The position numbers and the translations under genes were made by a program. The notes below the pieces were generated by a model. It made no database searches, was not told the origin of the DNA, and saw only the letters and a list, made by a program, of their open reading frames with translations. Shown here in pieces: positions 20,811 to 22,670 of a stretch of DNA of 64,000 nt. How positions within the stretch are numbered: position 1 is the first letter of the stretch; each line of letters begins with the position of its first letter. Source of the DNA: Eledone cirrhosa. Its lineage: Eukaryota. Location: positions 48,546,001 to 48,610,000 of the forward strand of contig OZ024749.1 of assembly GCA_964016885.1 (NCBI GenBank), given 5' to 3'.

Positions 20811-21727
20811 CATATTTATATGTATATGCATTATGCGCTTATGTGTTTGTTGTGTGGTCGGTATGCGCCCATGTGTCCATACATATATGTTTAATGAGAA
20901 GGAGAAAGAGAAAGAGAGATGGAAATGTGTAAATGTTTGAGCGTGTGTGCACGTGTGTGTACTTTGTCTGCACATGCGCGAACGTTTGTTCATATATTTT
21001 TACTTTGAACTTTATTATTACTCTATTTTATTTCTTTTTTCAATACAAAGTTATCTAGTGTTTTTTCTCGTCCATCATATTATTTTTACAAAAATAAATA
21101 ATAGTCACAAACCAACAAACCTCGTAAAATAAAGAAAACATATTTGCTTTTTCCCTTAATGTTTATTTATATTATTTTTGCAATATCTACGCATAATATT
21201 ATTATTACTATTTTTTATCATTTTACAGAATCCTTAGAACGTTGCTCAAAATGTTTTATTTCCTTCGGCACTTCACCCTCTATTCTCAAATATAACCGAG
21301 CTCAAATTTGATATTATTATTCCGAGTTCGATGAATTAAGATAACAGTCCTGTAATGAGAGTCGTTTAATGGAATTTCCCATCCAACAAATTGCTAACTG
21401 TGAGCTTAAGTTAAATTCCGTTATTATTATTAATCTATATGTGTTATATATGTATCCACTTCCATAATGTATCACCCATTCGTACGTCAGTCGTCGACGA
21501 AGTAATTTACACAGGCGAAACATTGCAGCATTTTCCTTCCTTTGTGTGTTTAGACCTAACGTGCACATACACGCACATACATACACACTCTCATTCCCAC
21601 ACACACACACACACATATATATATATTAGAAATTAGAAATTATAAGCTTTCACCGTATTTTAGACTAAAGACATTTCTAGCCTGATAGTGGGGTTTATAA
21701 CCTCGGAGAAATGGAAAAAGATGAGTG

Positions 21728-21800
21728 TTGCCGTACATGGCAGTCGAACCCACATCTTTGGTTATCCAGACCACTGTGCTACCATTACACCAATACACAT
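21728..21800 (-). tRNA. tRNA-like sequence (element-borne, probably non-translational), inverted copy
   Basis: Reverse complement of 22128-22198 with a few substitutions. Confidence 0.55.
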
Positions 21801-22127
21801 CCCATCTCCTTCCATTCGAATTAGAAGCTATGAACTTAGCAAGTGAATGATAAACAAGCAAATTATAAACGTAAACATGTAAGTATGTTTTTGAAACGGT
21901 GCGCGAGTTTGAAATTAGAAATTATAAGCTTTCACCGTATTTTAGGCTAAAGACATTTCTAGCCTGATAGTGGGGTTTATAACCCTCGGAAACTTATAAT
22001 TTCTAATTATAATTTCAAATTCGCGCACCGTTTCAAAAATATACTTACATGTTTGCGTTTATAATTTGCTTGTTTATCATTCACTTGCTAAGTTCATAGC
22101 TTCTAATTCGAATGGAAGGAGATGGGA

Positions 22128-22198
22128 TGTGTATTGGTGTAATGGTAGCACAGTGGTCTGGATAACCAAAGATGTGGGTTCGACTCCCATGTACAGCA
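22128..22198 (+). tRNA. tRNA-like sequence (element-borne, probably non-translational)
   Basis: A box TGGTGTAATGG, anticodon-like arm TGGT-CTGGATA-ACCA, T arm TGGG-TTCGACT-CCCA, partial acceptor pairing TGTAT/GTACA. Confidence 0.6.
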
Positions 22199-22536
22199 AC
22201 ACTCATCTTTTTTCATTTCTCCGAGGGTTATAAACCCCACTATCAGGCTAGAAATTCCTTTAGTCTAAAATACGGTGAAAGCTTATAATTTCTAATTTCT
22301 AATTTCAAACTCGTGCACCGTTTCAAAAACATACTTACATGTTTACGTTTATAATTTGCTTGTATATATATATATACATACACATATATGTATTTATATG
22401 TATGTATGTATATGTATATATATATATATATATATAAACTCATATATACATATACATAAAATCATGCTTACTTCCCATACCATGTATCCATAAAATGTTC
22501 TGATGAAGAACTTCTGATATTTTAACCTTTATTATA

Positions 22537-22583
22537 TACTCCGATGAAACCGGGCATGTGCTAGCATGAAACGATCGTAAGTA
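22537..22583 (+). ncRNA. Minimal type I hammerhead motif with U4C change
   Basis: TACT-CCGATGA-...-GAAAC-GATC-GTA-AGTA. 4 bp stem I and palindromic ACGATCGT; island between (TA)n tracts. Confidence 0.6.
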
Positions 22584-22670
22584 ATTAAATGATCAAAAAT
22601 GTCTTTGATTGTTGTTTATAAAGTATACACACACACACACATACAGACGTATATATATATAATATATATA

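Follow-up and report, generated by a model that had tools for sequence, protein, structure and literature searches.

A head-to-head repeat insertion in Eledone cirrhosa: a likely Penelope-type passenger with a tRNA-like module and no ribozyme

How a short tRNA-bearing sequence came to lie in two opposed arms, each longer than one copy, between runs of (AT)n is the question raised by a locus in the genome of Eledone cirrhosa. The window, i.e., the whole stretch of DNA that was analyzed, comprises 64,000 nt of contig OZ024749.1 (assembly GCA_964016885.1, positions 48,546,001 to 48,610,000 of the forward strand), and the sequence in question is a non-coding unit of 290 bp. The insertion is likely a young passenger of Penelope-like elements (PLEs) that carries a tRNA module and lacks a ribozyme. 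According to the reading favored here, to which a probability of roughly 0.78 is assigned, a PLE enzyme copies the unit, and host methylation of A58 in its tRNA-shaped part stalls this copying.

The insertion and its repeat family

The insertion consists of two arms, each holding about 1.3 turns of the 290-bp unit, which are joined 5′ to 5′ and set in (AT)n. With the unit numbered u1-290 along window positions 22074-22363, self-BLAST and alignment placed the left arm (366 nt, u147-290 followed by u1-230) at 21625-21990 on the minus strand and the right arm (374 nt, u206-290 followed by u1-290) at 21990-22363 on the plus strand. The arms are identical in 298 of 318 aligned columns (21625-21935 versus 21990-22303) around a centre of ~60 nt, and both outer ends of the insertion are unit 3′ ends adjoining (AT)n. 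The left arm abuts an (AT)n tract at 21615-21626, in which a target duplication is unreadable, with a short 3′ end devoid of the tail, and the right arm abuts (TA)n at 22363-22376 with a long 3′ end that retains it, the tail being the 60 nt between the two ends at u230 and u290 (22304-22363, plus strand). These two positions appear to be two start sites of reverse transcription. No further copy of the unit was found in the window beyond this two-arm insertion.

Much of this anatomy had been proposed in an earlier note on the same stretch. Its head-to-head partial tandems with about 1.3 copies per arm were borne out by self-BLAST and alignment, and its unit length of ~285 bp was close to the 290 bp found (282-283 bp in the left arm, which has one 7-nt repeat fewer). 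The cloverleaf with GGA in the anticodon position, which the note had placed inside the unit and not at its 5′ end, was recovered there by ARAGORN and Rfam (u53-125), and the contrast it had drawn with an ordinary short interspersed element (SINE) holds, since copies across the genome do not begin at the tRNA 5′ end. The suggested resemblance to Penelope insertions was likewise upheld by the partial tandems, the inversion, the (TA)n and the pairing of long and short ends. The proposal of permuted copies held less well: the permutation is not random, since only the 5′ ends vary and the 3′ ends fall at two fixed positions.

The structure in the window is real. In the 3.0-Gb genome assembly, in which the counts were taken, a 15-mer of the unit had 1,841 exact matches and its reversed control had 1, so the structure is not due to chance. 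The unit belongs to a family of 290-bp non-coding repeats with more than 1,000 copies in the genome, and sister subfamilies add thousands of copies to this main family. These subfamilies, named B1, B2 and C, were reached through variant forms in reads of a relative; B1 and B2 have a common 17-mer with 4,753 genome matches, and the older subfamily C has an 18-mer with 424. Words of the unit also occur in sequencing runs assigned to seven organism codes, with small shares in three of these. The 15-mer count was skewed by strand (603 forward and 1,238 reverse matches), which was not the case for the other three patterns and may be an effect of the tool. At some loci (L018, L027 and L028; L386 and L387) insertions were repeated at nearby places, likely by segmental duplication, and the duplicates L027, L028 and L387 were left out of the counts.

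The main sample comprised 61 loci in the genome order of the 15-mer matches, composed of 21 of 30 returned loci (the other nine were second matches within the same insertion and were dropped) and 40 fetched stretches; it omits two listed loci in its range and the loci past 159.5 Mb. Of these loci, 26 were single arms and 29 were simple head-to-head pairs; a further 5 were complex, and 1 was a chance match. The 3′ ends fell in two zones, a long one at u279-u7 and a short one at u194-233 (mostly u230 and u223), and were thus fixed at two sites 60-70 nt apart, the 5′ ends being variable. A long end was paired with a short one at 26 of the 29 simple head-to-head loci, with no long-long pair, no short-short pair and 3 other combinations. 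The same pairing was verified in two score-selected sets (15/16 and 13/14) and in 22 of 25 loci of subfamily C, one of which was short-short, and the window locus conforms to it, with the short end on the left and the long end on the right. Moreover, (AT)3 was found within 12 nt of 86 of the 93 outer 3′ ends, and arms reached 741 nt in the ordered sample, with up to ~3.3 units per arm.

The two arms of a locus also resemble each other in their variants. The u50 allele was the same in both arms at 20 of 22 loci typed as C or T (p = 1e-4), and the variants common to both arms exceeded all 2,000 permutations, although about 8 of 30 shared variants are alignment artefacts. At L109, an 11-nt deletion recurs in two successive units, which would be expected of a variant template, whether circular or tandem. 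Head-to-head joints of other copies, including a CATG joint, are contained in independent short-read contigs and reads; the window locus's own junction was bridged by none among the contig matches listed.

This footprint resembles that of PLEs. In the available text of PMC8557442, PLE insertions are characterized by partial tandems, a bias towards microsatellites, a one-sided tail of 30-40 bp and a 5′-truncated copy in inverted orientation. In that of PMC11167929, both strands of AT-rich DNA are cleaved and extended by a purified PLE protein, which initiates at two internal positions of the RNA; these delimit the tail, and hammerhead cleavage is unneeded. The 290-bp family presents several features of a PLE passenger, namely partial tandems with fixed 3′ and variable 5′ ends, an inverted 5′-truncated copy, an AT-rich target and a tail confined to one end, and its mobilization by PLEs is very probable. 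The genome itself contains 10,596 GIY-YIG candidates, of which 150 were scored, with frames of up to 1,096 aa in which a reverse transcriptase (RT) domain precedes GIY-YIG, one of three RT matches being below the Pfam cut-off. At L141 and L150 (2 of 20 loci), PLE reading frames themselves occur in head-to-head pairs, an autonomous version of the layout of the unit. Another short (AT)n-flanked repeat, often inverted and marked by a GAAAC motif and a GC-rich stem, accompanies several copies of the 290-bp family, in the flanks of L203, L204, L210 and L233.

The tRNA-like module and the stops beside A58

The cloverleaf is found at 22126-22198 of the plus strand in the right arm (Rfam tRNA, 41.3 bits) and at 21732-21796 of the minus strand in the left arm (29.4 bits). 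It includes an A-box-like motif at 22135-22145 and a B-box-like motif that coincides with the T loop (22177-22187, both on the plus strand), in which A58 is position 22183 (u110), just 5′ of the stop peak of the family. A purine-rich leader (22110-22126) is predicted to pair with a pyrimidine trailer (22202-22219, both on the plus strand), closing the cloverleaf on a stem of 17-18 bp; the pairing was predicted at -19 to -24 kcal/mol, and 7, 0, 0 and 0 of 1,000 shuffles were as good. This stem would be possible only in read-through or circular RNA, because a tRNA-type start would fall 3′ of the leader.

The D, anticodon and T arms are conserved in the four subfamilies, and the anticodon loop is variable. 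On the sense strand, RNAalifold recovered these three arms and a 3′ hairpin (-19.1 versus -13.4 kcal/mol on the antisense strand), with changes on both sides in only 2 of 29 pairs; the closing stem was not picked, owing to register shifts, and the whole unit was not unusually stable by folding (z -1.2). A functional tRNA gene was rejected on account of two acceptor mismatches at the window locus and of the differences in the anticodon loop between subfamilies, and no close parent was identified among the 16 genomic tRNA-like matches compared. At L248-L258, another repeated family derived from tRNA was seen, probably a SINE head, in which the body is constant and the anticodon differs between copies (GGC, AGC, GAC, GGT and GTC). 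As judged from sequence, RNA polymerase III (Pol III) stands about an even chance of being the polymerase of the unit RNA. The sole run of at least four T on the main-family sense strand (22208-22213) lies inside the trailer and is a possible Pol III terminator; T4 runs are scarce (1 of 12 runs of T), but too weakly so for an argument to be built on it.

The positions at which arms stop were counted per 16-nt window, in the main family over 84 arms with complex loci excluded. Forty-one of 69 passes stopped at u111-126, just 3′ of A58, versus 1 of 28 at u95-110, immediately upstream, and 4 of 73 on the adjoining downstream side; no remaining window exceeded 5 of 27, and no peak was found at the base of the 17-bp stem at u146 (5/77). 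The mode of the peak is at u115-116, five bases from A58, where a CATG palindrome and microhomology to (AT)n are located. In subfamily B, which bears A58, 17 of 28 arms stopped at u110-118 (2 of 30 matches having been dropped as subfamily C). In subfamily C, the sample consisted of 65 loci in genome order (70 minus 4 second matches and 1 duplicate) with 78 arms; 101 of 108 copies carry T58, yet the subfamily retains both the T stem and CATG, and only 8 of 58 passes stopped in the A58-equivalent window, versus the 41 of 69 of the main family (p = 1.6e-7). A weaker, post hoc peak was seen in this subfamily after G9 (13/37 passes versus 1/22, p = 0.01). The modified base 1-methyladenosine at this position (m1A58) is known as a terminator of HIV reverse transcription from the available part of PMC4033218. 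The scarcity of stops in the T58-bearing subfamily C, compared with the A58-bearing main family, suggests a block of reverse transcription by m1A58, and methylation by the host is probably the cause of the truncation peak.

According to the favored reading, a multimeric (or circular) RNA would be made by Pol III read-through from the A and B boxes or by read-through from the host. A PLE protein, probably a dimer, would cut both strands of an (AT)n tract, and each cut end would prime reverse transcription internally, one at u290 and the other at about u230. The two cDNAs would then run 5′-ward, stop and join via short microhomologies, giving the hairpin, and the retention of a single cDNA would give a single arm. 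RNA bearing m1A58 would halt the enzyme at u111, and trimming to a CATG/ATGTA microhomology would yield the peak at u115-116.

Several findings weigh against this reading, the first of them concerning the cause of the peak. In read-through copies there was no excess of substitutions at A58 (3/91, versus 0-4/91 at other A sites), and subfamily C, which is older than the others and diverges from them at many sites, offers a single lineage contrast. Cleavage of the RNA in the T loop, as for 3′ tRNA fragments, would leave a similar pattern, and the same PLE passenger could owe its peak to such cleavage, to an A58-dependent tertiary fold or to a bound protein. The missing misincorporation signature, the mode lying five bases off A58 at the palindrome and microhomology, and the role of A58 in maintaining the T-loop fold all speak for this explanation, but the boundary at u111 is sharp, the strong stem at u146 raises no peak, and subfamily C keeps CATG and the T stem without a peak, which excludes microhomology or the stem alone; the explanation is less probable than methylation but far from negligible. 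Five C calls at A58, considered as misincorporation, were mostly extension through an internal quasi-palindrome.

The other adverse points concern the template, the transcript and the driver. The concordance between arms could stem from later gene conversion, and at u183, a segregating site, the two arms of the window locus differ in the alignment. A T5 run 3′ of the cloverleaf stands in the way of Pol III, subfamily C has T6 and T7 runs, its B box is degenerate, and arms ended near the expected tRNA-type start (u47-62) in just 2 of 21 passes. Non-autonomous PLEs generally have a 3′ end in common with their partner, according to the available part of PMC8557442; no 3′ sequence common with PLEs was found by BLAST against 45 and 20 loci or by nhmmer against 84 loci of about seven families, and 21 pairwise tests of seven PLE ends against the unit gave nothing (best 5/300 shuffles). 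Furthermore, the tail of the unit, with 60-70 nt, exceeds the published 30-40 bp. The lone nhmmer match (L231) was discarded as a driver, being an inserted subfamily C copy.

As no partner was recovered by sequence in the 84 loci, PLE mobilization rests on the insertion footprint. Long tails do occur in this genome, since a separate, hammerhead-bearing PLE-type family with the same (AT)n target has a tail of ~80 nt. The 3′ end of this older family (~80% identity, 462 candidates) is found in the window at 22465-22626 of the plus strand and ends in (AT)n. It carries a minimal type I hammerhead at 22537-22583, with a C4 variant core and a palindromic stem III, and other copies of the family present the ~80-nt tail and inversions. 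An abundant PLE family with a hammerhead-like end was also observed in the 3′ untranslated regions of L152, L227, L244 and L245, its first box being TTGATAA, not CTGANGA, and constant across copies.

Alternatives to a Penelope-type passenger

A hammerhead retrozyme, whose RNA would cleave itself near GAAAGCTT to give monomers that circularize and are copied round and round, is improbable. The unit size, the partial tandem copies and the low GC match the non-LTR retrozymes described in the available text of PMC7229834, the arms cross the unit boundary to reach their 741 nt, and the X4 contig closes on itself at 290; genomic tandems, however, also yield a self-closing contig. The earlier note had reported a hammerhead-like 3′ box, GAAAGCTTA, and no canonical CTGANGA box; both observations were confirmed, whereas the hint of a hammerhead was not supported. 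A scan for the hammerhead core on both strands of the four subfamilies found no CUGANGA, even with one mismatch allowed, on the sense strands of the main family, B1 and C, and one loose match in B2. The box itself, located at 22277-22285 of the plus strand and also at 21933 and 21651 on the minus strand, is not kept in the sister subfamilies: GAAAGCTT becomes GATAGCTT in B1 and TAAGCACA in C, GAAA being replaced by GATA or TAAG. A hammerhead in the unit was rejected on these two grounds, and, because the type I hammerhead core is absent, the unit is by definition not a retrozyme. The Rfam scan revealed no ribozyme, a weak blank since it missed the neighbouring minimal hammerhead too.

Because the pairing of long and short ends is the published tail signature of PLEs, an ordinary SINE and an assembly chimera are both unlikely. 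A tRNA SINE driven by a long interspersed element (LINE), with inversions produced by twin priming, would account for a tRNA-derived module with A and B boxes, for 5′ truncation and for microsatellite-flanked 3′ ends, and LINEs and SINEs are plentiful in an octopus genome (PMC13282606). Against it, the tRNA is internal, 19 of 21 passes continue past the tRNA 5′ end into the previous unit, no poly(A) is present, and the strict pairing of two fixed 3′ ends already contradicts such an origin, which is very improbable. Twin priming inverts the 5′ part of one cDNA, whereas here a 3′ end is found on both arms. The tRNA-derived SINEs of octopuses include the OK and OR families. Finally, a DNA-level foldback element, a satellite or an assembly chimera is hardly credible, for although the almost perfect palindrome of 300 bp, set among many microsatellites, and the junction of the window locus, unbridged by the listed contigs, would suit it, about half of the loci are head-to-head with differing junctions and fixed outer ends, the half without an inverted arm lacks terminal inverted repeats for transposition, and the independent short-read joints, including the CATG one, contradict it.

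Comparison with known systems

Proposals that PLEs mobilize non-coding passengers have drawn on co-occurrence and phylogeny. In this family, the footprint of the insertion itself, with two paired starts on opposite strands, points to a PLE in thousands of young copies, and the 290-nt family provides a substrate for testing how a PLE protein recognizes RNA without a hammerhead or an obvious common sequence. If the A58 reading is true, a modification that the host makes on germline RNA is recorded in the genomic copies, and the family lends itself to directly testing the proposal that SINEs shed the cloverleaf to escape tRNA enzymes. Tentatively, and with the odds somewhat against it, the family may represent a SINE-equivalent class for Penelope: a ribozyme-free RNA that carries its complete tRNA fold on a long stalk and is modified by the tRNA enzymes of the host, and whose modification map is left in the genome as truncation peaks (A58 in the main family and B, and more weakly G9 in C). 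The B box would then depend on the very base, A58, that stalls the copying, subfamily C would be an escape from this conflict and, in the boldest form, tRNA-processing enzymes would replace the hammerhead and make a unit-length circle. In the literature searched, no tRNA-bearing ribozyme-free PLE passenger and no A58-linked truncation were found; the repeat libraries Repbase and Dfam were outside the search, and an entry may exist there.

Among known systems, the PLEs with GIY-YIG, as far as described in the available parts of PMC8557442 and PMC11167929, share with the unit the partial tandems, the inverted 5′-truncated copy, the tail at one end, the (TA)n bias and the two internal starts. The unit differs from them by the absence of an open reading frame and of a hammerhead, by its 60-70-nt tail, by its tRNA module and by having no sequence in common with the sampled PLEs. 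The non-LTR retrozymes of animals (PMC7229834; bioRxiv 10.64898/2026.07.22.740005, both available in part) are also non-coding short tandems of 170-400 nt with low GC, for which PLE mobilization has been proposed; unlike the unit, they are defined by the type I hammerhead, and circular RNA has been shown for them. The term "tRNA" had no match in the main text of the latter work, as far as it was available.

The schistosome Sm-alpha and Sj-alpha elements, in the accessible text of PMC6765202 and PMC2770079, likewise have a tRNA-derived module in a tandem unit, and the promoter of an upstream copy transcribes the downstream ones. In Sm-alpha, a hammerhead is combined with a Pol III unit of tRNA origin. 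The schistosome elements differ from the 290-bp unit by their active hammerhead, and the same text makes no mention of head-to-head pairs, a tail or a closing stem. Chlamys MRC1, described in the available part of PMC8557442, is a non-coding PLE passenger with head-to-tail multicopy insertions and belongs to a mostly hammerhead-less clade; in that text, elements of its type generally have 3′ sequence in common with their partner, and no tRNA module is described for them. With tRNA SINEs the unit has in common a tRNA-derived region with A and B boxes and retrotransposition in trans, and it is set apart from them by the internal position of the tRNA, by the preservation of the cloverleaf and by an insertion signature that is PLE-like, not LINE-like.
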